Part shown: piece by piece, positions 12,293-49,748 of the stretch
Layout of the letters: each line of letters starts with the position of its first letter
How positions within the stretch are numbered: the first letter of the stretch is position 1
IMG/VR virus record: IMGVR_UViG_3300035670_000083
Coordinates: 1 to 64,000 of that record
From: a virus
Reading direction: 5' to 3' (one strand)
Length of the DNA stretch: 64,000 nt
Translations under genes and position numbers: made by a program
The notes under the pieces: model-generated
What the model saw: the letters and a program-made list of their open reading frames with translations, nothing else
What the model was told of the DNA's origin: nothing
Databases searched by the model: none

Positions 12293-12333
12293 TTTTAAGA
12301 ATTTATTAATTAATATATAACTTAAAATAGAAT

Positions 12334-40648: not shown

Positions 40649-40930
40649 ATGAGTACAATAACAGAAAAAAAATCAAAATCAAAAGTAGATGAAATACTTT
40701 CAAAGCCATTTAAGTTGATTCTTCACAACGATGATTATAATTCCTTCGAATGGGTAATAACTTGTTTGATTAAAGTTTGTGGACATGATCATCAACAAGC
40801 TGAGCAGTGTGCTCATATAGTTCATTTTAACGGTGAATGTGATGTTAAAAGAGGTGATTATGAGAAACTATCTGTGATGAAGGAGAAATTACAGAATGCT
40901 GGTTTGTCAGTTACTATAGAATCAAATTAG
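40649..40930 (+). CDS. clpS: ATP-dependent Clp protease adaptor ClpS
   Basis: LILHNDDYNSFEWVITCL..VCGH...QAEQCAHIVHFNG...VK.G. Confidence 0.9.
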   Translation: MSTITEKKSKSKVDEILSKPFKLILHNDDYNSFEWVITCLIKVCGHDHQQAEQCAHIVHFNGECDVKRGDYEKLSVMKEKLQNAGLSVTIESN

Positions 40931-40951
40931 TAAAGTATATCAAGAAATAGA

Positions 40952-40982
40952 CTGAACCTCACATTACATATACATCTTGTTA
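40952..40982. repeat. Site S0: truncated attC-like site (right arm only)
   Basis: CTGAACCTCACATTACATATACATCTTGTTA is nearly identical to the right arm of S4 (43349-43379). Confidence 0.7.
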
Positions 40983-41117
40983 TATTCAGTAATTTTTAAA
41001 TTATTTTCAAAAAATCGTTTTTTTTTTTTATTAATATATAGAATATAAATATTATCAGAAGAAATGAAAAATGTAAAACTATATAAAGTGGATACGTATT
41101 AATTTTTTTATTACACA

Positions 41118-41160
41118 TAACGTTCCGATTATTTGCGTTCGGTGGGGCGTTACACCACCA
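41118..41160. repeat. Site S1: degenerate attC-like site (left core only)
   Basis: TTATTACACATAACG is identical to the approach to S9; no matching right arm. Confidence 0.55.
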
Positions 41161-41171
41161 ATGATTATTAT

Positions 41172-42004
41172 ATGAGTAAAGAAATGAGAAGGTTAATAGT
41201 TACTTTTAATAAGTTTGTTATTAAAGAAAAGTCTAATAATATTAAAAAATAGTTTCAAAATATGATGCTCCGTATGGAATTATTTTTGATGGGGAAAACA
41301 AAATATTAGTTGGTGATATGCACCAAACACCAGTTGAATTATCTAAAAAACTTGAAAATAAAGTAGTTAATGTTGCAAACAAATATGGTTATTATGGTGA
41401 AGGTATTGGTTTGGAACATAACGAAGCAATCACCAAATCATCTTTTTATGAAAGATTAGACCCCAAAAAACATTATGGTTCTTGGGATAGAAAATTAATT
41501 GAAAGTGGTGAAGTACCTGAAGATAAAAAATATTTTTTTTTGTATGCTTTGTTTTCAAATCCAAAAGAAAATCATAGATTAGAAAAATTATTGGAAAATA
41601 CGGAAGAAGAAGATACAATTTTTTATGTCTTACTAAAAACTATACCCGATTGGTCAGCAGATATGGGTAAATTTAGTTTAGGACAAAAAGAACTAAATAA
41701 ATTTCTTAAAGAAATAAGTGAAAATGGAATTGATTTTATTCAAATGTCACAACAAAAAGCAGATGAAAAATCATTATCAGAATTTTTAGATTTAGGAGAA
41801 AAATTACAATGGCCTGAAAAAAATTGGCAAGATTATCCAAATATGGCAGGTAAATTTGCAAGAGTGGCGACAACCATTAGAGACCAATTTTTAATTAATG
41901 CTGGACCTGGGGTTTATTTTGTCGGTGCGGGACATCTTAAAGATATTGTAAAAATGGGCAAAGAAAAAAAATTATCTTTAATAGGGGGCGAAAAAATCAT
42001 GTAA
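41172..42004 (+). pseudogene. Frameshifted cassette gene (leader MSKEMRRLIVTFNKFVIKE)
   Basis: ATG at 41172 stops at TAG 41250; adding one A to the run at 41244-41249 joins it in frame to ORF 41318..42004. Confidence 0.65.
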
Positions 42005-42017
42005 AAAATATTGTGTA

Positions 42018-42065
42018 TAACGTCCGATGATAAACAATCGCTTTAATGTTGTTTATCATTTGTTA
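42018..42065. repeat. Site S2: attC-like hairpin
   Basis: TAAC-GTCCG-ATGATAAACAA-loop-TTGTTTATCAT-TT-GTTA; perfect 11 bp stem. Confidence 0.9.
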
Positions 42066-42143
42066 TATTCAGTTAAATTTTTTCAATTATTTCAAAAAAC
42101 CGTTTTCTTTATTAATATATAAAAGAAAAATAATATTAAAACT

Positions 42144-42818
42144 ATGAAACATATAAAAAAATATGAAACTTTTCTAGAAAAAAAATGGATACTAGGAATA
42201 AATGAAAACATTTTTGATAAAATTGAATCACTAGTTAAGGGAAAATCAGACTCTGGTAAAATTATATCCGAATTCTTAACTAAGAACGGAATTAAAGAAA
42301 CTGGGACTGCATATTCAATTCTCTATTTGGGCGGTGCTAATCCAGGCAAATCCGAATTAAGTCACCCATTTGATTATTTACATTATACACCAGGTATCGC
42401 TAAGATTACAGAAGATGGTGTTTTAGTATTAAATGATGAAAAATCTAAATCATTAAAAACACCAGATACATTATCATTTCTAGCAATTATTGAAAAAGAT
42501 GATATTGTTAAAAATTGGACATTTGGATTAAAACAAGGGTGTAGTGTAAATAAAAATGATTATACTTTTGATTTAACAAAGGATATTTCAACTCTAACTT
42601 TTAAAAAATCTATGTGGTCAATGTTGAAACAAACTTGGATTAAAGGAGAAGATGAAGTTGTAGAACTTGATAATGATATTACTGAACTTAAAGAGGAAGA
42701 TACTATATCCTTCAAAACCCCTATGAATATGATAACTCTACAACAATGGGTTGATAAGTTGAATGAGACAGGATGGGTTAAAGAAAATAGTAAATATTTT
42801 AAAGAATATATAAAGTAG
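42144..42818 (+). CDS. Cassette gene, hypothetical, MKHIKKYETFLE leader
   Basis: Single ORF between S2 and S3 with own TAATATATA (42113-42121). Confidence 0.75.
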   Translation: MKHIKKYETFLEKKWILGINENIFDKIESLVKGKSDSGKIISEFLTKNGIKETGTAYSILYLGGANPGKSELSHPFDYLHYTPGIAKITEDGVLVLNDEKSKSLKTPDTLSFLAIIEKDDIVKNWTFGLKQGCSVNKNDYTFDLTKDISTLTFKKSMWSMLKQTWIKGEDEVVELDNDITELKEEDTISFKTPMNMITLQQWVDKLNETGWVKENSKYFKEYIK

Positions 42819-42901
42819 GCAATAATCCACAAATAAAAAACACCAATTCGTTAAGTGAAATTGATTATTTTATATCCACAATTGGAAAACGAAACAGAAC
42901 T

Positions 42902-42949
42902 TAACGGTTGAGAATATGTGTTCGTTTTAATGACACATATTCTTTGTTA
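42902..42949. repeat. Site S3: attC-like hairpin
   Basis: TAAC-GGTTG-AGAATATGTGT-loop-ACACATATTCT-TT-GTTA; same geometry and nearly the same loop as S2, different stem sequence. Confidence 0.9.
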
Positions 42950-42975
42950 TATTTAGTATCAAAAATTTTATACAA

Positions 42976-43218
42976 ATGAAAAAATGTAAATGTATTAAAG
43001 AATCTTCTTGGTTTTTAATTGATGATTCCTTCGATAAGAATTCTAAATTAAATGGTGGTGGATTTTCTTTTCAAGTAGGTAGTGAATATGATTATTTTGA
43101 AGAAGATACACCATTTGGAAATGGTATGTCGGTTATCCATCCTAAACATGGGAAAGAAAATCCTACTGGTTTTGATGAAAGAAGATTCTACGAACACTTT
43201 GAAATAATAAACTCATAA
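42976..43218 (+). CDS. Cassette gene, hypothetical 80 aa
   Basis: Single ORF between S3 and S4. Confidence 0.7.
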   Translation: MKKCKCIKESSWFLIDDSFDKNSKLNGGGFSFQVGSEYDYFEEDTPFGNGMSVIHPKHGKENPTGFDERRFYEHFEIINS

Positions 43219-43236
43219 AATTTTTGATATTGAACC

Positions 43237-43379
43237 TAACGATACTCAGATATATTTAGGTTTTCTTTTTAATGTAGTGTGAGATTTGAAACACTACCTG
43301 TCAATATACCAACAAACTCTATTAGAAGCACTTACCTTCAATTAACCACCGAATCTCACATTACATATACACCTTGTTA
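43237..43379. repeat. Site S4: chimeric attC-like site
   Basis: Left 37 nt identical to S6 left arm; remainder is a different hairpin (GTAGTGTGAGATT...AATCTCACATTAC) ending ACATATACACCTTGTTA like S8. Confidence 0.8.
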
Positions 43380-43488
43380 TGTGTAGGTGTGATTATTTAC
43401 CACCAAACTCTATTCGGAGAACTGAAAGAAAATTTTAGAAAAAAGAAGGGAGGGAAATTTAATTCAGAATATTTTATATATATCATCT

Positions 43489-44304
43489 ATGATACTCAAA
43501 TTTAATCAGTTTATAACTGAAAGACTTTCCTATTCTGAAGATGTTGAGATGATCTCAAAGATTATAATTGAATACTTATATGGTAAAGAAAACTGGGAAT
43601 CAGAAGAAGTGATAAAAATAGATAATTCGGTTATAAATGAAGTAAGAATACAATTCATAGATAATTTAAGTAAGTTAGGAAAAAAATCATCATTTAATCC
43701 AAATAAATCAGATTATAATAATCGTATGATATTTTTAGAATTTGATCCAGATGAAATCACCGAAGGATTGTTAAATCATGAAGTATTTCATGGGTGGGAA
43801 TGGATTCGAAATGAAGGAAAACATTTAACTAATTCTTTTCAATTCGCAATTATTCAATTAAATAATTACTTTGAAGAAGATGAAAACATATCTGAAATTA
43901 TTCAACTATTTTATTTAATGTCAGATGCTGAAATTAGATCTCATTTAAATAGTGATATATTTGAATTTAAAAGATGGAAAGAGGATAAAAATACCACTTC
44001 GATGGAAGAAATAGATTTATTAATAGAGGAAACAGATACATTTCAAAATTATCAATTTGTGAAAAAATTTAATCTAAACGAATATTTAAATAAATTGAGT
44101 ACTGAGAAATTAGATGAATTTATATCAGCAGTTGAACAAATGAAGTATATGAAAGATGGTGAAGAGTCTGAAATTATGGTGAAGAGATTTTCTGATTTAG
44201 AGAGAAGTAAATTTATACAAAAGTTAAATATTATACACAAACAACAAAGTGAAAAAATTACTAAATATTTAGGAAAATTAATATTATATTTCAGAAACTC
44301 TTAA
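43489..44304 (+). CDS. Cassette gene, putative zinc metallopeptidase with MILKFNQFITE leader
   Basis: LNHEVFHG (HExxH) plus downstream DAEIRSH glutamate. Confidence 0.6.
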   Translation: MILKFNQFITERLSYSEDVEMISKIIIEYLYGKENWESEEVIKIDNSVINEVRIQFIDNLSKLGKKSSFNPNKSDYNNRMIFLEFDPDEITEGLLNHEVFHGWEWIRNEGKHLTNSFQFAIIQLNNYFEEDENISEIIQLFYLMSDAEIRSHLNSDIFEFKRWKEDKNTTSMEEIDLLIEETDTFQNYQFVKKFNLNEYLNKLSTEKLDEFISAVEQMKYMKDGEESEIMVKRFSDLERSKFIQKLNIIHKQQSEKITKYLGKLILYFRNS

Positions 44305-44345
44305 ATTTTTTTTAGAAAAAATTTATTTGATACATTTTTAATTAC

Positions 44346-44353
44346 TATATTTG
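44346..44353 (+). promoter_or_regulatory. Bacteroidota-type -7 promoter element
   Basis: TATATTTG 20 nt upstream of ATG 44373; TTTG at 44326-44329. Confidence 0.6.
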
Positions 44354-44372
44354 CGTATATAATAAAAATAAA

Positions 44373-44626
44373 ATGGAAAATCTCAAACAAGAAAATAACT
44401 ACGAAAAATTTGTTATCAGACAGAAGGTGGTTGGGTATTAAAAGAAGGCGTGGCTAAAAAGGAAGAGATAAGTTTTTTTGTTGTTAGTCCTGATGGTAAA
44501 GAACTTACTTGTTTAGATGGTTCAAATATATTCTCTTCTGTTGATAAATCTGATTTGTTAGAATCGTTTAATATGAGGTTTAAAACAAACTGTGTTAGTG
44601 TAGAAAGACCAAATGTTTTTGAATAA
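44373..44626 (+). pseudogene. Frameshifted cassette gene (about 84 aa if repaired)
   Basis: MENLKQENNYEKFVI then one base missing near 44418, then TEGGWVLKEGVAKKEEISFFVVSPDG...RPNVFE*. Confidence 0.6.
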
Positions 44627-44652
44627 GAAAATAATTGAAAAATAATTCAATA

Positions 44653-44732
44653 TAACGGTTGCAAATATGAGAAGTAAATTTTTTCCATAAAAAAATAGAA
44701 AAATCAAAATTTATTTCTTATATTTGTTGTTA
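44653..44732. repeat. Site S5: attC-like hairpin
   Basis: TAAC-GGTTG-21 bp stem with two G:T pairs-TT-GTTA. Confidence 0.88.
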
Positions 44733-44758
44733 TATTTAGTAAAAATTAATTTATACAT

Positions 44759-44938
44759 ATGAAATACGAAGCACTTAAAAAAGAATATTATGCAGTTTAT
44801 GAAAAAGAACCAAGACACCAGAATGAAAAGAATGGTGTGATACTTGCACCATATAACACGAAAGAAGAAGCTGAACAAGCGAGAATTAAATATGGTTATA
44901 GTGATGATAACTACTATGTTGATAAACTCATAAATTAA
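44759..44938 (+). CDS. Cassette gene, hypothetical 59 aa, absent from the ORF track
   Basis: MKYEALKKEYYAVYEKEPRHQNEKNGVILAPYNTKEEAEQARIKYGYSDDNYYVDKLIN fills the S5-S6 interval. Confidence 0.7.
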   Translation: MKYEALKKEYYAVYEKEPRHQNEKNGVILAPYNTKEEAEQARIKYGYSDDNYYVDKLIN

Positions 44939-44951
44939 TTTTTATTGAATA

Positions 44952-45073
44952 TAACGATACTCAGATATATTTAGGTTTTCTTTTTAATATATACTAAAAA
45001 CAATTTATGAAAGATAATAAACACATAAAAAGTTTCAACGATCATCAAGAAAACTTGAATATATCTGATGTTA
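44952..45073. repeat. Site S6: attC-like hairpin with promoter and gene start in the loop
   Basis: TAAC-GATAC-TCAGATATATTTAGGTTTTCTT...AAGAAAACTTGAATATATCTGA-T-GTTA; 22 bp stem, two G:T; TAATATATA at 44985-44993, ATG at 45007. Confidence 0.9.
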
Positions 45074-45288
45074 GTGGTAGTGAAATATTAAAATATCTTG
45101 ATGATAAATATCATGTAAAAGATAATCTAATGATTGTTGGTAGATTTGATAAGAACAAAAAATATAATTATATTCAATTGTCTAATGAAATATCAAAGGT
45201 ATTTGGTTTGTCAACACAACAATCATTAGATTTAGTAGAAAAGTGGAAAGATATTAGATTTGAGAAAATTATGAAAAATAGATTTTAA
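45007..45288 (+). CDS. Cassette gene beginning inside site S6
   Basis: MKDNKHIKSFNDHQENLNISDV-SGS...; the Val codon is the GTT core. Confidence 0.75.
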   Translation: MKDNKHIKSFNDHQENLNISDVSGSEILKYLDDKYHVKDNLMIVGRFDKNKKYNYIQLSNEISKVFGLSTQQSLDLVEKWKDIRFEKIMKNRF

Positions 45289-45302
45289 TATTTAATTATC
45301 AC

Positions 45303-45350
45303 TAACGTCCGATGATAAACAATCGTTTTAATGTTGTTTATCATTTGTTA
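45303..45350. repeat. Site S7: attC-like hairpin
   Basis: Identical to S2 except one loop base. Confidence 0.9.
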
Positions 45351-45461
45351 TGTGTAGGTGTGGATTATTTACTACTAAACTTCAATCGGAGAACTGAACA
45401 AAAATTTTAAAACAAAAAGAAGGGTGGGTTTTTTAATCTTACTATTTATATATAAAAGAAA

Positions 45462-45890
45462 ATGATGAAAGATTTGAGACAGTTTATTAAAACAACCATA
45501 CGTGAGTTTTTGAATGAAGCATACATTGATGAGGATGGTAATTTAAAAGACTTTAATGATAAAATATTCTATGATTTTGATAAAATTAAAAAGTTTGTAG
45601 ATTGGTTTCAAAGTGAATATAGTGATTATACTCATAAACAGGGTTGGTCTATATTCGATTCTGATACAGAAGCACCTAATGAAAAATATCATAGTGAAAG
45701 AACTTTTAATGGTAAAAAATTGAATGGATATTATTGGCAAGTTCAAAGATTAGATTCACCAAGTGATGACGAAGCATTATTTGGGAAATTACCAAATGAT
45801 TATAAGGCTGATGATTTAGCAAGAAAGTTAGGTTTAATGGTTGATGAATACGGTGTGGTTTATGGTTGGGATGGACAATCTTTTTTATAG
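45462..45890 (+). CDS. Cassette gene, hypothetical, MKDLRQFIKTTIREFLNE leader
   Basis: Single ORF between S7 and S8 with TTATATATA upstream. Confidence 0.75.
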   Translation: MMKDLRQFIKTTIREFLNEAYIDEDGNLKDFNDKIFYDFDKIKKFVDWFQSEYSDYTHKQGWSIFDSDTEAPNEKYHSERTFNGKKLNGYYWQVQRLDSPSDDEALFGKLPNDYKADDLARKLGLMVDEYGVVYGWDGQSFL

Positions 45891-45960
45891 TGTGTGGGAT
45901 TTTTCTTTTAAAATTTTCAACCGAAATATTGATTAGAACGATGAATGGAACACTTACACA

Positions 45961-46050
45961 TAACGGATGGGTGTATATGTAGGTTTTTTAACTTTAAAAT
46001 TTAATATATACTTATGAACTGAATAAAAAACTTACATATACACCTTGTTA
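45961..46050. repeat. Site S8: attC-like hairpin with TAATATATA in the loop
   Basis: TAAC-GGATG-GGTGTATATGTAGGTTTTTTA...TAAAAAACTTACATATACACC-TT-GTTA; 21 bp stem, one G:T. Confidence 0.9.
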
Positions 46051-46081
46051 TGTGTTAGTAAAAAATAAAAGGAAAAAGAAT

Positions 46082-46387
46082 ATGAAAAGATTAAAATACA
46101 TTAAAAGATTCAATGAATCAAATGAAATGGATATTGAAATTGAATTAATTGGTCCTGATATAGATGATATTTTAGATGCAATTAACTTCATAAACAATAA
46201 CTATGATGTGAGTGTAAATCCAACAGATTTTCAAGAAGGTTCTGATATGCCTTATGCTCATAAAAGAAATCAAAATTATTCAATTTTTGTTAAGTTAAAT
46301 CCTAGTGGTGATGAAAAAAGTCATATCAGATTTATTAATGATTTGTTGGATGAAAACGGATTCTCTTGTAGGTTGTATATGATTTAA
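46082..46387 (+). CDS. Cassette gene, hypothetical, MKRLKYIKRFNES leader
   Basis: ATG at 46082 preferred over the GTG at 46052. Confidence 0.75.
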   Translation: MKRLKYIKRFNESNEMDIEIELIGPDIDDILDAINFINNNYDVSVNPTDFQEGSDMPYAHKRNQNYSIFVKLNPSGDEKSHIRFINDLLDENGFSCRLYMI

Positions 46388-46414
46388 TGATATTATTTAT
46401 TTTCTTATTACACA

Positions 46415-46544
46415 TAACGATACTCAGATATATTTAGGTTTTCATTTTTAATATATAAACAAAAATAATTTAACAACATGAAAAGTTCAAATAATGTAAA
46501 AAGTTTCAAAGAGTTCAATGAAAACTTGAATATATCTGATGTTA
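46415..46544. repeat. Site S9: attC-like hairpin with promoter and gene start in the loop
   Basis: Same family as S6 with compensatory change (TTTTCATT/AATGAAAA versus TTTTCTT/AAGAAAA); TAATATATA at 46449-46457, ATG at 46478. Confidence 0.9.
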
Positions 46545-46708
46545 GTGATAGTTTTTTGTCACCCGAAGAATTTTTAATTGATTGGGAAGGTAAAGATGAT
46601 TCAACACACCCCAATCAAGATATTAGAGACGAATGGACTAAAAGAATTAATCAATTAAAAATTTATTCAAAAATGGTTCTTGATAACACTTTAAAAAATT
46701 ATCACTAA
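46478..46708 (+). CDS. Integrase-proximal cassette gene beginning inside site S9
   Basis: MKSSNNVKSFKEFNENLNISDV-SDS...; its stop TAA is part of the terminal TAAC core. Confidence 0.75.
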   Translation: MKSSNNVKSFKEFNENLNISDVSDSFLSPEEFLIDWEGKDDSTHPNQDIRDEWTKRINQLKIYSKMVLDNTLKNYH

Positions 46709-46745
46709 CTATATTATATATGTAATGACCTATAAATAATTGATT
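46706..46745. other. Site S10: candidate attI-like primary integration site
   Basis: Last TAAC core, followed by T rather than G and by no hairpin; 36 nt before the integrase ATG. Confidence 0.6.
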
Positions 46746-47549
46746 ATGAATGAAAAGGGTAAGTCAACTTTAAAGATTTGTGAACAAAAACTTAATTATC
46801 TAAATTATTCTAAAAGAACGATTGATAATTATTTATCACATATTAATAGATTTTTAAAATCACAAAATAAATCATGTTTGCATTTATCATCTAATGATTT
46901 TCAGTCATATTTAGATAATTACAAATTTACTTCTATATCGCAACAAAACCAAGTTATTAATTCTATTCGATTTCTTTATAAAGAAGTTCTCGGTAAAAAG
47001 TATGATAAAGTCTCTTTCAAAAGACCTAAATCTGAAAAGAAACTTCCACAGGTTATAGATGGTGATTATATAAAATCACAATTATCTAAAATTGATAATC
47101 TTAAACATAAGGCAATCCTCACACTAACATACTCGGTTGGATTAAGGGTTTCTGAAATAACCAATCTTAAAATTGAAGACATTGATTCAAAAAGAATGAT
47201 CATTCATATAAAAAATGCAAAAGGAAAGAAAGATAGGATTGTTCCACTTTCTGAAAATGTTTTAAATTTGCTTAGATATTATTGGAAACAATATAAACCA
47301 AAAGAATACCTTTTCAATGGATTATCCGGTAGATATTCAATTCAATCCTGTCAGAAAATATACAAAAAATATATTGATGAAAAATCATCATTTCATACAT
47401 TAAGACATTCTTCATTTACTAATTTACTTGAGTCAGGAACAGATTTGCGGATAATACAGAAAATAGCAGGTCATTCAAGCTCAAAAACAACCGAAATATA
47501 TACTCACGTTTCAAATCAAATTTTAAGGAAAGTTAAATTACCCATCTAA
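46746..47549 (+). CDS. Tyrosine recombinase, integron-integrase-like but without the IntI insertion
   Basis: SAM-like N-domain (YSKRTIDNY, SISQQNQVINSIRFLYKEVL), KKLPQVI, catalytic GLRVSE, AKGKKDR, HTLRHS, AGHSS, TEIYTH all intact. Confidence 0.92.
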   Translation: MNEKGKSTLKICEQKLNYLNYSKRTIDNYLSHINRFLKSQNKSCLHLSSNDFQSYLDNYKFTSISQQNQVINSIRFLYKEVLGKKYDKVSFKRPKSEKKLPQVIDGDYIKSQLSKIDNLKHKAILTLTYSVGLRVSEITNLKIEDIDSKRMIIHIKNAKGKKDRIVPLSENVLNLLRYYWKQYKPKEYLFNGLSGRYSIQSCQKIYKKYIDEKSSFHTLRHSSFTNLLESGTDLRIIQKIAGHSSSKTTEIYTHVSNQILRKVKLPI

Positions 47550-49748
47550 TCCCCAAGATTTTCTAGCTTCTACCATCCTTCTATTATAAGAGATTTTATT
47601 TCTTCTTATATCCAGTAATTGTTTATAATCAACTCCTTCTTCATATGATATTTTATTTAAAATATCATCAACTTTATTTCTTATCTGTATATCTTCTAAA
47701 TTATCAAAATAATCATCTACCATCCCTCTGAAATCATTCTTACCAAAAATAGATGTTAGGTTAACCAAAGTCATAACCGTATCATCATTTTTATTACCAT
47801 CAGCTTTATAAGTAATATTTCCAGTTCTTGTTGTATGTTTTATAAATGTTGTCATTTCATCTATATTTTCGTTATTATAAATAATAATTGATCTATCTTG
47901 CATTTTTTCTTGGTAATCTTTCACCATTAGGTTTTTATTCTCACCAACTTTTAATCCTATTTTTTCATCTAACGCATCTACTCTGTGTTTAAATCTAAAG
48001 AATATAGATGATCCATAGTTGTTATTTCCTTCAAATACATTCGGTAAGTGAGCAAGTAACTCATATCCGTATGTATTGACTTCTAATACAGCTTTTAAAT
48101 TATCTGTATCAAAATGATCAAAAGCTAAAACATAAAGTAATTCTGATAATTCATTGACGGATATAAGATTGCTTCTATACATTCCTATTTGTTCAAGTTG
48201 AATAAAGTCAAGTATGTTTCTATAATTCTTATTTTGTCTTTCTATTAGATCTATCGGCTTTGATTTTAATTTGAAAATATTTATCACCGTATAGTCCTGT
48301 CCTAATCCTTCAGATACATCTATACTTAATAGTATCCGATAATTTTTTCTTATTTGTGGATTATAAATTTCTTTATTCGGATGCCATTTTAGATCTTTGT
48401 AAGAGAATTTAAGTTTTTCTTCTATTTCAGGAATTTCCTGCCATTCAAATAATGTTTTTCTATCAGTTAATTCTTTTATTAATCCATCATCTAATAATGA
48501 TCTAGATGAGTTAATAAACTTCAAGTCAAATTCTTGGTTAAAAGCTTCTTCACCACCAATATCTTTGATTGTTTGTTTTTTCCAAGTTGTTATTTCAGCA
48601 ATTTCTGGTAATTTAATATCATTTATTGTTTCTTTAATGATATCTTCTTCCTGACAATCATCAGAATTAAAAACATGAACAACCCACTTATTTAACTCGT
48701 CATCAAATCTCAGCTCTGATTTATTTTTTGGAAAAGATTCTTTAATCCTACTTAAAACATCTTCTGGTTTGACATTGTAGTGATCTAATTTCTTTTGATT
48801 CAATCTTATGTATGTCACGAATCTTTTCGGAACTTGCCACCAATAAACTCTTTTTGCCACATAAGATGATTTTTCGCCTTCAGGCTTTTCAGCTTCTATT
48901 AAAAGTTTGTGAAATAAATTAAATCCGTTTGGAGTAGAGGTTATTATAATTTTAGAATTATCGATGTTGGCAATAGTAGGAAACACCGATTTGTAGAATT
49001 TATCTGCAATATTATCTGGTAGATAAGCAAACTCATCTAAATATAAAAAGTCAGCAGATTGACCGATAGAAGCGGTTTTTGTTGTTGCAAATCCTTTTAT
49101 ACGACTTTTATTTTCAAATGACATGAATTTCTCATTCCACTTTTTAATACCTTGTTGTAAGAAAAATGGAAGTCTTTGGTATATTTCTTTCATTTTATCA
49201 AGGATCTCAGTTGCTGTATCCAACTTATTTGCTGTTACAAGAACGTTTTTGTTATTATTAAAAAGAACAAAATGTAATATGGTTATTGCTGATGTGATAG
49301 TATTATGTGATAAAATACCATTTGTATAATATCTATGATTTGGATGATCAATAGATAAATCAAACATAGATAGTTTATGATTTGTTTTTTCTATCATTTT
49401 AACTTTTGATATTCCTTGATCAGTTTGTATGTAATCGCCTATTTTTAAATCTTTTATGTATATTTGATTAAAGTCCACATCAAATAAAATGTGATTATCA
49501 GCACCGTTAAGAAATAGTCCATTTTCTAGTTTTAAATTATATTCACTATAAGGTTGTGTTATATGTATTTGCGGAGCTATTTCATAACCAGTGTCTGTTT
49601 TCACTGATAAGTTGCAACTTATTGTATTCAATATCTTTTTGGATATATCATGTTCATTCAAATCTAAATTTCTGTATTCGAAAACTTCTATATACTCAAT
49701 TAATTTTTTTATTAAATATATTATGATAAGAGTAAAAAATCTAAACAT
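47538..49748 (-). CDS. terL: Terminase large subunit, C-terminal part preceded by C-intein
   Basis: Intein blocks then SHN|TITSA; LYLDEFA (Walker B), IITSTPNG, SIDVSEGLGQDY, NDDTVM. Confidence 0.9.
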   Translation of the reverse strand: MFRFFTLIIIYLIKKLIEYIEVFEYRNLDLNEHDISKKILNTISCNLSVKTDTGYEIAPQIHITQPYSEYNLKLENGLFLNGADNHILFDVDFNQIYIKDLKIGDYIQTDQGISKVKMIEKTNHKLSMFDLSIDHPNHRYYTNGILSHNTITSAITILHFVLFNNNKNVLVTANKLDTATEILDKMKEIYQRLPFFLQQGIKKWNEKFMSFENKSRIKGFATTKTASIGQSADFLYLDEFAYLPDNIADKFYKSVFPTIANIDNSKIIITSTPNGFNLFHKLLIEAEKPEGEKSSYVAKRVYWWQVPKRFVTYIRLNQKKLDHYNVKPEDVLSRIKESFPKNKSELRFDDELNKWVVHVFNSDDCQEEDIIKETINDIKLPEIAEITTWKKQTIKDIGGEEAFNQEFDLKFINSSRSLLDDGLIKELTDRKTLFEWQEIPEIEEKLKFSYKDLKWHPNKEIYNPQIRKNYRILLSIDVSEGLGQDYTVINIFKLKSKPIDLIERQNKNYRNILDFIQLEQIGMYRSNLISVNELSELLYVLAFDHFDTDNLKAVLEVNTYGYELLAHLPNVFEGNNNYGSSIFFRFKHRVDALDEKIGLKVGENKNLMVKDYQEKMQDRSIIIYNNENIDEMTTFIKHTTRTGNITYKADGNKNDDTVMTLVNLTSIFGKNDFRGMVDDYFDNLEDIQIRNKVDDILNKISYEEGVDYKQLLDIRRNKISYNRRMVEARKSWGLDG
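49302..49748 (-). mobile_element. Split intein, C-terminal fragment
   Basis: Block B-like ADNH, IKDLKIGD, block F MFDLSI...YYTNGI, block G SHN followed by Thr. Confidence 0.88.

Follow-up and report, generated by a model that had tools for sequence, protein, structure and literature searches.

A probable integron-like gene-cassette array next to a Xer-like recombinase gene in a large phage

Integrons are considered a device of bacteria whose defining feature is the integrase IntI with its extra domain. Xer systems serve to resolve dimers of chromosomes or to integrate whole elements at a single dif site, and are not known to handle gene-cassette arrays. The present work concerns positions 40952-47549 of the IMG/VR virus record IMGVR_UViG_3300035670_000083, where small genes alternate with hairpin sites and the series ends at a gene for a Xer-like tyrosine recombinase. 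We consider it likely that this stretch is a gene-cassette platform operating by site-specific recombination, an analogue of the integron. The stretch does not qualify as a true integron, since its recombinase is Xer-like, the crossover side and the strand are reversed and the cassettes carry promoter-like motifs of their own.

A 2023 survey of phages with the standard models reported attC clusters as well as classical integrons, and a Polaribacter phage was among the carriers, with two sites (PMC9892861). Some of the sites in these phage clusters of attC sites lacking integron integrases (CALINs) were recombined by IntI1 in E. coli (PMC9892861). In T4-type phages, which are large and lytic, repeats composed of a promoter and a stem-loop (promoter early stem-loops, PeSLs) lie between the ORFans of hyperplastic regions, where genes are shuffled and mini-circles occur, a layout that recalls the present array (PMC2839356, PMC4122927). 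No published description of the system presented here was found in the literature searched, the coverage of which was incomplete.

The sites of the array and their folding

The window analysed here is the first 64 kb of the record, which is 100,284 bp long. A sequence-only reading of this DNA had described an array of small co-oriented genes split by sites of the form TAACG-N4-stem-loop-T(T)-GTTA. The array was confirmed with a purpose-written finder, which requires TAAC followed by 0-8 nt, a stem of 9 bp or more (at most one mismatch), a loop, the returning stem, 0-4 nt and GTTA, within 160 nt in total. Applied to the window or to the whole record, the finder returned exactly seven sites each time (42018, 42902, 44653, 44952, 45303, 45961 and 46415), all on the plus strand and spanning 42018-46544; the minus strand of the whole record contains none. 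Fifty shuffled sequences gave a mean of 1.5 sites, any geometry being counted. The left spacer is 5 nt long and the right spacer 1-2 nt long at all seven sites. The word TTGTTATRTKYAG has six occurrences in the record, every one at 40977-45357 on the plus strand, and the pattern TAACG-N20-50-TTGTTAT has four matches (0.26 expected).

Besides these seven, there are one chimeric site, two decayed sites (one of them a right half only) and one terminal site. The chimeric nature attributed to the site at 43237 holds, and the fold of this site is poor (z = -2.0). Three sites had been called partial: 40952 is indeed a right half only and 41118 is decayed, but 46706 is the conserved terminal site of the family. 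The sites at 44952 and 46415 are complete, with right arms that fall within the 5' coding region of the next gene. Scanning the window with Rfam yielded no family match.

Relatives of the recombinase number 207 in the IMG/VR viral contigs, and the counts given for related loci refer to 80 fetched loci (58-81% identity). The first description of the stems, as 11-23 bp long with differing sequences and a conserved geometry, stands as regards the geometry, but the stems of the window are of 11-21 bp and hairpin families recur: 280 unique sites form 148 sequence clusters, and one 40-nt hairpin was found 56 times. The consensus of the 251 unique sites of the main geometry is 5'-ATTnnnn(A/C)TAAC G nTTn [stem] loop [stem] TT GTTA TnnnnAGT, with practically no variation in TAAC/GTTA and the following G. 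Each unit pairs one small gene with a folded site on its 5' side, and this site reads 5'-ATTnnnnATAAC / G-nTT-n / stem-loop-stem / TT / GTTATnnnnAGT on the sense strand. Sites of the short class have an inner stem of 10-12 bp and a loop of 11 nt, those of the long classes stems of 17-22 bp and loops of 33-36 or 62-79 nt. Pairing within the inner stem of the short class reaches 99.7%, and 9 of 11 pairs have undergone compensatory double changes.

The fold consists of two dyad-related duplexes of 11-13 bp, namely the inner stem and an outer arm (R) that TAAC/GTTA closes, with a small bulge (3-5 nt) between them and G.T pairs on either side of it. The sequences of the inner and outer arms are alike in inverted order (TTACACATAAC resembles CTTACATATACACC and GTTATGTGTAG resembles GGTGTATATGTAG), and the folded site therefore resembles a two-arm core site with an unpaired centre. 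Xer enzymes can act on a forked hairpin that mimics the two-arm dif site with an unpaired centre. As predicted from its sequence, the folded site of the array mimics in the same manner the two-arm core site of a Xer-type recombinase.

Stem mismatches in the related loci comprise 363 G.T, 25 A.C and 42 other pairs, and the G.T pairs have fixed places, on both sides of the 3-nt bulge, at stem position 13-14 and at outer-arm position 11. Because G.T is found 363 times against 25 for A.C, the sense strand appears to be the one under selection to fold. At all six sites where both strands were compared, the plus strand folds better than the minus strand. There are no terminator-like sites on the plus strand of the window: the stems are A+T-rich, the loops measure at least 11 nt and T runs are absent.

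One hairpin family of locus L034 has two motifs resembling the T-arm of tRNA, GGTTCGA(C/T)TCC, in its interior (L034:2290-2360, 2680-2750). A tRNA-like 3' end upstream of two L034 sites had suggested tRNA cassettes, an idea that was rejected since ARAGORN calls no tRNA in any array.

Recombinase, terminal site and cassette exchange

That an intact tyrosine recombinase directly follows the array, as first noted, is supported by two Pfam domains (Phage_int_SAM_4, E = 4.6e-13; Phage_integrase, E = 6e-34) and by the catalytic motifs, GLRVSE (134), KGKKDR (161), HTLRHS (219), GHSS (244) and EIYTHV (252). The protein has the SAM-like N-terminal domain, the catalytic domain and the R-K-H-R-H-Y residues of the tyrosine recombinase superfamily (Xer/IntI branch). 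The nearest solved structure is that of archaeal XerA (PDB 4a8e, E = 8e-33), with a continuous alignment over residues 22-264. By comparison, the alignment to VchIntIA (PDB 2a3v) splits in two, residues 176-211 of the query (36 aa) standing opposite residues 175-259 of IntI (85 aa). The insertion specific to IntI (I2 helix) is absent from the recombinase in this alignment. Messier and Roy, cited in PMC4889954, are said to have found in 2001 that an additional IntI domain between the conserved catalytic patches is necessary for activity. The two integron integrase models score below their cut-offs, TIGR02249 with 160.3 bits against 265 and in two stretches, NF011946 with 98.8 against 435, and the top NCBIfam model is XerA_Arch (175.8 against a cut-off of 220). 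The missing insertion and the low scores rule out a true IntI, and the description of the enzyme as a non-canonical integrase is justified.

Upstream of the recombinase and co-oriented with it, the 80 loci contain 334 sites in 478 kb, against 15 in 678 kb downstream, so that the association of the sites with this integrase family, on which the sequence-only reading depended, is found elsewhere as well. Most of the 15 downstream sites belong to second arrays in three loci. These second arrays (L009:18273-20559, L072:8947-10886 and L060) lie 8-10 kb past the recombinase on the same strand and reach the end of the locus. The size of the arrays ranges from 0 to 19 sites. Neither clpS nor terL was found near the recombinase in any of the 80 loci, no other gene is conserved beside it and the search downstream yielded no conserved partner.

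Wherever the DNA upstream of the recombinase is long enough to reveal it, the array ends in a terminal core 35-45 nt before the start codon of that gene. This core has the form (A/C)TAAC|TAnnATATATA, without a hairpin, and practically all related loci retain it. Immediately ahead of the terminal TAAC, loci L007, L014, L016 and L036 contain 'empty cassettes', GTTAT-n4-TCGTTTTAATG-n4-ATAAC, the two ends of which enclose only an 11-nt motif identical to the loop of the common 40-nt hairpin.

The closest isolates with a homologous recombinase are flavobacterial phages (37-40% identity). Compared with Polaribacter phage Freya_1, phage Freya_10 has an extra 4.9-kb block of about twelve small genes between flanks that are 100% identical. 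The insert sits exactly at ...TTTACAAC| (...ACAAC|), upstream of the recombinase homologue.

Homologues of the recombinase in bacteria (41-52% identity) likewise lack the IntI insertion, and they have N-terminal extensions of 80-290 aa. Downstream of them are arrays, on the opposite strand, of sites of the form ATAAC-G-N4-stem..stem-T(T)-GTTAT, for example in the chromosome of Desulfitobacterium sp. Sab5 (L106:8001-16334), in Flavobacterium cheonanense and in Arundinibacter roseus; besides L106, the bacterial loci of this kind are L158, L159, L138, L133, L095, L094 and L096. Consecutive sites of the bacterial arrays are chained via complementary flanks, as in the phage arrays.

Comparison of related arrays revealed rearrangements. 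Loci L011, L012 and L029 share blocks at 99.6-100% identity, ordered differently, and a 960-nt TAAC-to-TAAC unit is the last before the recombinase in L011 and L012 and stands mid-array in L029. An identical gene order without variation at the junctions had been named as the observation that would speak against shuffling; these three loci differ in cassette order. In many site pairs, 54-60 of 60 upstream bases are identical through TAACG, beyond which the two sequences are unrelated. The break is directly after TAACG in 13 of 22 such pairs, and a second, rarer break is at TT|GTTA; at the breaks, only 4-5 bases are common to the two sites. The flank that accompanies the hairpin is the downstream one in 34 pairs and the upstream one in two. 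The crossover would thus be located mainly at the left core, TAAC|G, and the hairpin would usually travel with the downstream gene, the reverse of attC. The co-segregation, the breaks at TAACG and the G.T bias rule out a simple integron model, with the hairpin attached to the upstream gene and the bottom strand recombined. Likewise, the crossover side, the strand and the bulge with its G.T pairs bear out the earlier remark that the site geometry is unlike that of classical attC.

The cassettes have complementary ends. Over 16 bases, the average number of paired positions is 9.8 for the two ends of the same cassette, with at least 12 in 57% of the cassettes, and 5.5 for the two flanks of one site, which is random (5.6/16). 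Since the own ends pair and the flanks of the same site do not, the pattern is that of a circular cassette with one palindromic site, and the complementary ends appear to be the footprint of a circular intermediate opened in the core. The outer arms, earlier described as cassette-specific, are so in that they are the cassette's own two ends, but the arms on either side of an arrayed site do not pair with each other.

The median unit measures 391 nt, and the longest open reading frame (ORF) is on the plus strand of the array in 315 of 341 units. The 293 cassette proteins can be divided into 233 families. Only about one-tenth of 150 representative cassette proteins have Pfam matches, which include two DNA methyltransferases, Lar (restriction alleviation), an RNA ligase and an exoribonuclease.

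Map of the window array, leaders and flanking genes

The elements of the window array and its two flanking genes are as follows (coordinates, strand, description).

40649-40930: clpS, by Pfam
40952-40989, plus: right half-site at the distal end of the array (right arm, TT, GTTAT and flank, without TAAC or left arm); begins 22 nt past the clpS stop and corresponds in sequence to the right halves of sites 43348 and 46024
40990-41121, plus: short first cassette, with TTAATATATA at 41031, a tiny ORF only and its terminal TAAC at 41118-41121
41118-41270, plus: decayed site of the leader-encoding type; both arms mutated, GTTA core gone and leader ORF broken, as read from the alignment to intact sites of L041, L069, L042 and window 44952/46415
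41318-42004, plus: cassette gene, 228 aa, no family match
42018-42065, plus: site S2 (TAAC, G-TCC-G, 11-bp stem, 11-nt loop TCGCTTTAATG, stem, TT, GTTA), a member of the common 40-nt hairpin family; DNA fold of -9.9 kcal/mol, z = -4.1
42144-42818, plus: cassette gene, 224 aa, no family match
42902-42949, plus: site S3, with a 40-nt interior, the loop of S2 and a different, compensated 11-bp stem
42976-43218, plus: cassette gene, 80 aa; cassette ends form a 26-nt inverted repeat, 85% complementary (42946-42971 / 43215-43240)
43237-43379, plus: chimeric site S4; left half of the leader-type family, right half of the GGTGTATATGTA family, inner stem of 13-15 bp only
43489-44626, plus: long cassette with a 271-aa gene (43489-44304) and a 58-aa ORF (44450-44626), no site between them
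44653-44732, plus: site S5, stem of about 21 bp including G.T pairs; plus strand -15.3, minus strand -11.7 kcal/mol
44759-44938, plus: cassette gene, 59 aa; cassette ends of 26 nt, 92% complementary (44729-44754 / 44930-44955)
44952-45073, plus: site S6, leader-encoding; TTAATATATA and ATG 45007 in the loop, right arm and GTTA translated as ..ENLNISDV
45007-45288, plus: cassette gene, 93 aa
45303-45350, plus: site S7, the 40-nt hairpin of S2 (98% identical) with different flanks on both sides
45462-45890, plus: cassette gene, 142 aa; the cassette shares its 3' end with L012, L024, L039, L049 and L080, where this end is attached to different hairpins
45961-46050, plus: site S8, 21-bp stem, the strongest-folding site of the window (-21.6 kcal/mol, z = -6.8; minus strand -18.3)
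46082-46387, plus: cassette gene, about 101 aa (ATG 46082); cassette ends of 23 nt, 83% complementary
46415-46544, plus: site S9, leader-encoding, a paralogue of S6; ATG 46478 inside the loop
46478-46708, plus: last cassette gene, 76 aa; stop codon overlaps the terminal TAAC
46706-46722, plus: terminal site, the attI analogue, TAAC|TATATTATATATG; the recombinase ORF starts 18 nt on
46740-47549, plus: Xer-like tyrosine recombinase, 269 aa from TTG, 267 aa from ATG 46746
47538-49748, minus: terL, large terminase, by Pfam; convergent with the array and the recombinase

The ten cassette proteins of the window have no match in Pfam or PHROGs.

The word TTAATATATA is overrepresented 12-fold in the window (19 occurrences against 1.6 expected, on both strands, for example at 12310, 26079, 41031, 42112, 44984, 46448 and 54247), and five of its occurrences are in the array. 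It probably acts as a promoter element in this phage; no enrichment of sigma-70-like promoters was seen. As cassettes have TTAATATATA of their own, they can probably do without a common promoter. There is also a resemblance between this word and the terminal site before the recombinase.

In 100 of the 280 unique sites, the loop has a promoter-like motif together with the start codon of an ORF that continues across the right arm and the GTTA core as far as the payload. The two leader-encoding sites of the window are 44952-45073 and 46415-46544; the genes at 45007 and 46478 have only their first 25 residues in common, and the nucleotide homology of both units to other phages ends just past the site. 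The leaders are about 20 residues long, with a ...ENLNISDV end, and belong to few families, for example MKDLKHIKRFNESEENLNISDV, attached to unrelated payloads; their conservation is partly forced by the DNA arm. It is conceivable, although we find it rather doubtful, that the recombination site doubles as the front end of a gene, exchange at GTTA fusing a common leader in frame to swappable payloads. Should the leader be a signal for sorting or processing, the device may shuffle proteins that are delivered with the phage DNA. By analogy with the capsid-targeting sequence of the T4 internal proteins, a virion-packaging signal may be considered as a candidate role.

A second N-terminal family, M(E/K)LRKFI.TTI(K/R)E(Y/F)LNE, heads otherwise different cassette proteins and is encoded after the site, not in the loop. 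Its members include the product of window 45462-45890 and those at L007:8839, L021:363 and L082:9443. The looser motif MK..IKxF..E, searched as a regular expression, was discarded as too weak, being present in 9% of the cassette proteins and in 5% of control ORFs.

The record has an estimated completeness of about 18% (CheckV), which corresponds to a phage genome of roughly 0.5 Mb. The closest GenBank records are uncultured phages of 460-640 kb, whose DNA similarity to the window is only at the level of clpS. The identities first given to clpS, the tyrosine recombinase and terL are all supported by Pfam. The terL product has 736 aa, with a weak Pfam intein-splicing match at residues 113-149, and the 3' ends of terL and of the recombinase gene overlap by 12 nt. 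The comparison of the clpS-terL locus with relatives, suggested at the outset, could be made with one phage, L171, the only backbone relative that the terL search yielded (terL 65% and clpS 75% identical). In L171 a single unrelated 251-aa ORF separates terL from clpS (L171:3411-4227, corresponding to window 40931-47537), and both the recombinase and the array are absent from this interval. The 6.6-kb block of recombinase and array is therefore an insertion or a replacement in the window phage. Given the lack of clpS, terL or any conserved neighbour in the 80 loci and the lack of the platform in L171, the platform appears to travel as a unit, outside the core genome.

Interpretation and comparison with known systems

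The proposal of a gene capture and shuffling platform, made from the sequence alone, fits the linkage of arrays and recombinase, the rearranged orders, the exact breakpoints, the terminal site and the complementary ends, to which the site anatomy and the strand bias are now added. In the mechanism that we propose, the recombinase beside the array would cut and exchange strands at the TAAC core, mostly at TAAC|G and sometimes at TT|GTTA. Recombination between two sites would free a cassette as a circle, in which the complementary ends of the cassette would rebuild a perfect outer arm. The circle would then be inserted again, either at a different site or next to the recombinase gene, at the terminal TAAC|TATnATATATA site. 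Once inserted, the cassette would be expressed from the promoter-like motif that it brings with it, about one-third of the sites also supplying a start codon and an N-terminal leader. The recombinase as catalyst, single-stranded or extruded DNA as substrate and the circles themselves are all presumed from comparison of sequences.

Several points weigh against this interpretation. The recombinase is linked to the sites by association only, and the circles are deduced from sequence comparison. As the recombinase fails the family tests for IntI, its action on folded DNA is an extrapolation. The breakpoint pairs are phylogenetically non-independent, and their counts overstate the number of events; at the 56 near-identical hairpins, homologous and site-specific exchange are indistinguishable. 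Each site has two crossover points, unlike the prediction of the classical one-strand integron model. Finally, the tolerance of G.T on the sense strand fits RNA structure equally well.

This last point is shared by the best-surviving alternative, which we nevertheless judge improbable, namely that the sites are PeSL-like regulatory repeats (a promoter and an RNA stem-loop) shuffled by general or short-homology recombination, the recombinase being unrelated, for example a lysogeny integrase. The hairpins are intergenic and their sense strand tolerates G.T like RNA, but the sites are not terminator-like, and invariant TAAC/GTTA cores and dyad-related arms serve no terminator role. The promoter-like TTAATATATA, which the loops and leaders hold, occurs genome-wide, whereas the sites are confined to the array in the 100-kb record. 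One hairpin family is long and alike enough for homologous exchange, but breaks occur at TAAC|G between sites with only 4-5 bases in common. PeSLs do shuffle ORFans and form mini-circles without a dedicated recombinase (PMC2839356, PMC4122927), whereas the present array is tied to a recombinase in 80 loci of differing context, with a conserved terminal core. PeSLs also lack an invariant core and a terminal site and exchange by repeat homology; they are characterized by a strong host-type promoter, an effective terminator and exchange by homology, whereas the window has no enrichment of sigma-70-like promoters and no terminator-like site on the plus strand, and the breaks require only 4-5 bases in common.

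We regard as very unlikely that the enzyme is an ordinary phage integrase with the terminal TAAC as its attP, the cassettes being morons piled up by occasional off-target events. The terminal site does lie directly upstream of the gene, like many attP sites, and those who described the Freya, Ingeline and Leef phages took the integrase as a hint of possible lysogeny and no more (PMC8776804). Against this stand arrays of up to 19 ordered, co-oriented sites with one grammar and covarying stems, complementary ends on each cassette and rearrangements that occur within the arrays and not at the terminal site alone. Moreover, lysogeny is unusual for phages of about 0.5 Mb, the size estimated for this one. 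The two functions do not exclude each other, and the enzyme could integrate the phage too.

That the genes flanked by GTTAT...ATAAC are small transposon-like elements, moved by a transposase or nuclease with the hairpins as preferred targets, would account for the 12-26-nt terminal inverted repeats of the payloads and for exchange at both payload ends, but we consider it highly improbable, as there are no target-site duplications and no transposase or other conserved gene near the arrays, the units all have the same orientation in ordered arrays that end at the recombinase, they are restricted to the array in the 100-kb record, and inverted ends are expected of a circular cassette with one palindromic site.

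If the cassette-platform interpretation is true, the logic of integrons, that is, the stockpiling and reshuffling of single-gene cassettes at folded sites, exists in viruses, including phages of about 0.5 Mb, with a plain Xer-like recombinase. It would explain the turnover of the many ORFan accessory genes of large phages. The bacterial homologues beside arrays of the same grammar would hint that cassette platforms have an older or a parallel lineage. With Polaribacter phages in culture whose only differences are such cassettes, the system is experimentally tractable.

The phage CALINs, for example that of Polaribacter phage P12002L, are similar to the present array in that attC-like sites flank accessory genes, such as DNA methyltransferases, in virulent phages, one of which infects a flavobacterial host (PMC9892861). 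They differ, by the description of the survey, in that they were found with the classical attC and IntI models (IntegronFinder/HattCI), at two to a few sites per phage. The survey named no phage-encoded recombinase other than IntI, no terminal site and no cassette turnover (PMC9892861). Another likeness is with Xer recombination on folded single-stranded DNA, as in the attP(+) hairpin of the CTX phage recombined by XerCD, the forked-hairpin geometry of which, with two arms, matches that of the phage sites.

With integrons, for example those of class 1 or the chromosomal one of V. cholerae, the array shares mostly single-gene, co-oriented and highly diverse cassettes, the function of which is mostly unknown, and imperfect palindromic sites with AAC...GTT cores, in which structure is more conserved than sequence and the crossover is inside the core. 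In both, complementary cassette ends let a circle rebuild the site, one strand is favoured for folding, a distinct terminal site lies next to a tyrosine recombinase of the Xer/IntI branch, and the same cassette is found at different positions or in different arrays, with breakpoints in the core.

The differences are equally specific. The phage recombinase has 36 residues where VchIntIA, from the chromosomal integron of V. cholerae (PDB 2a3v), has 85, and it is co-oriented with the array at its 3' end, whereas the integron integrase is divergent and at the 5' end. The phage hairpin follows the downstream gene, whereas in integrons the G|TT crossover of R' keeps attC with the upstream gene. The sense (top) strand is favoured in the phage and the bottom strand is recombined in integrons; the asymmetry of the site is a 3-5-nt bulge flanked by G.T pairs in the former and extrahelical bases in attC. 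Phage cassettes have their own promoter-like motif, integrons a common promoter, Pc, at the integrase-proximal end. Lastly, many phage sites encode the start and leader of a gene, and the platform resides in a virus. Differing from integrons in the strand, the crossover side and the absence of the I2 domain, the platform, if its interpretation is true, would be a natural test of which integron features are essential.

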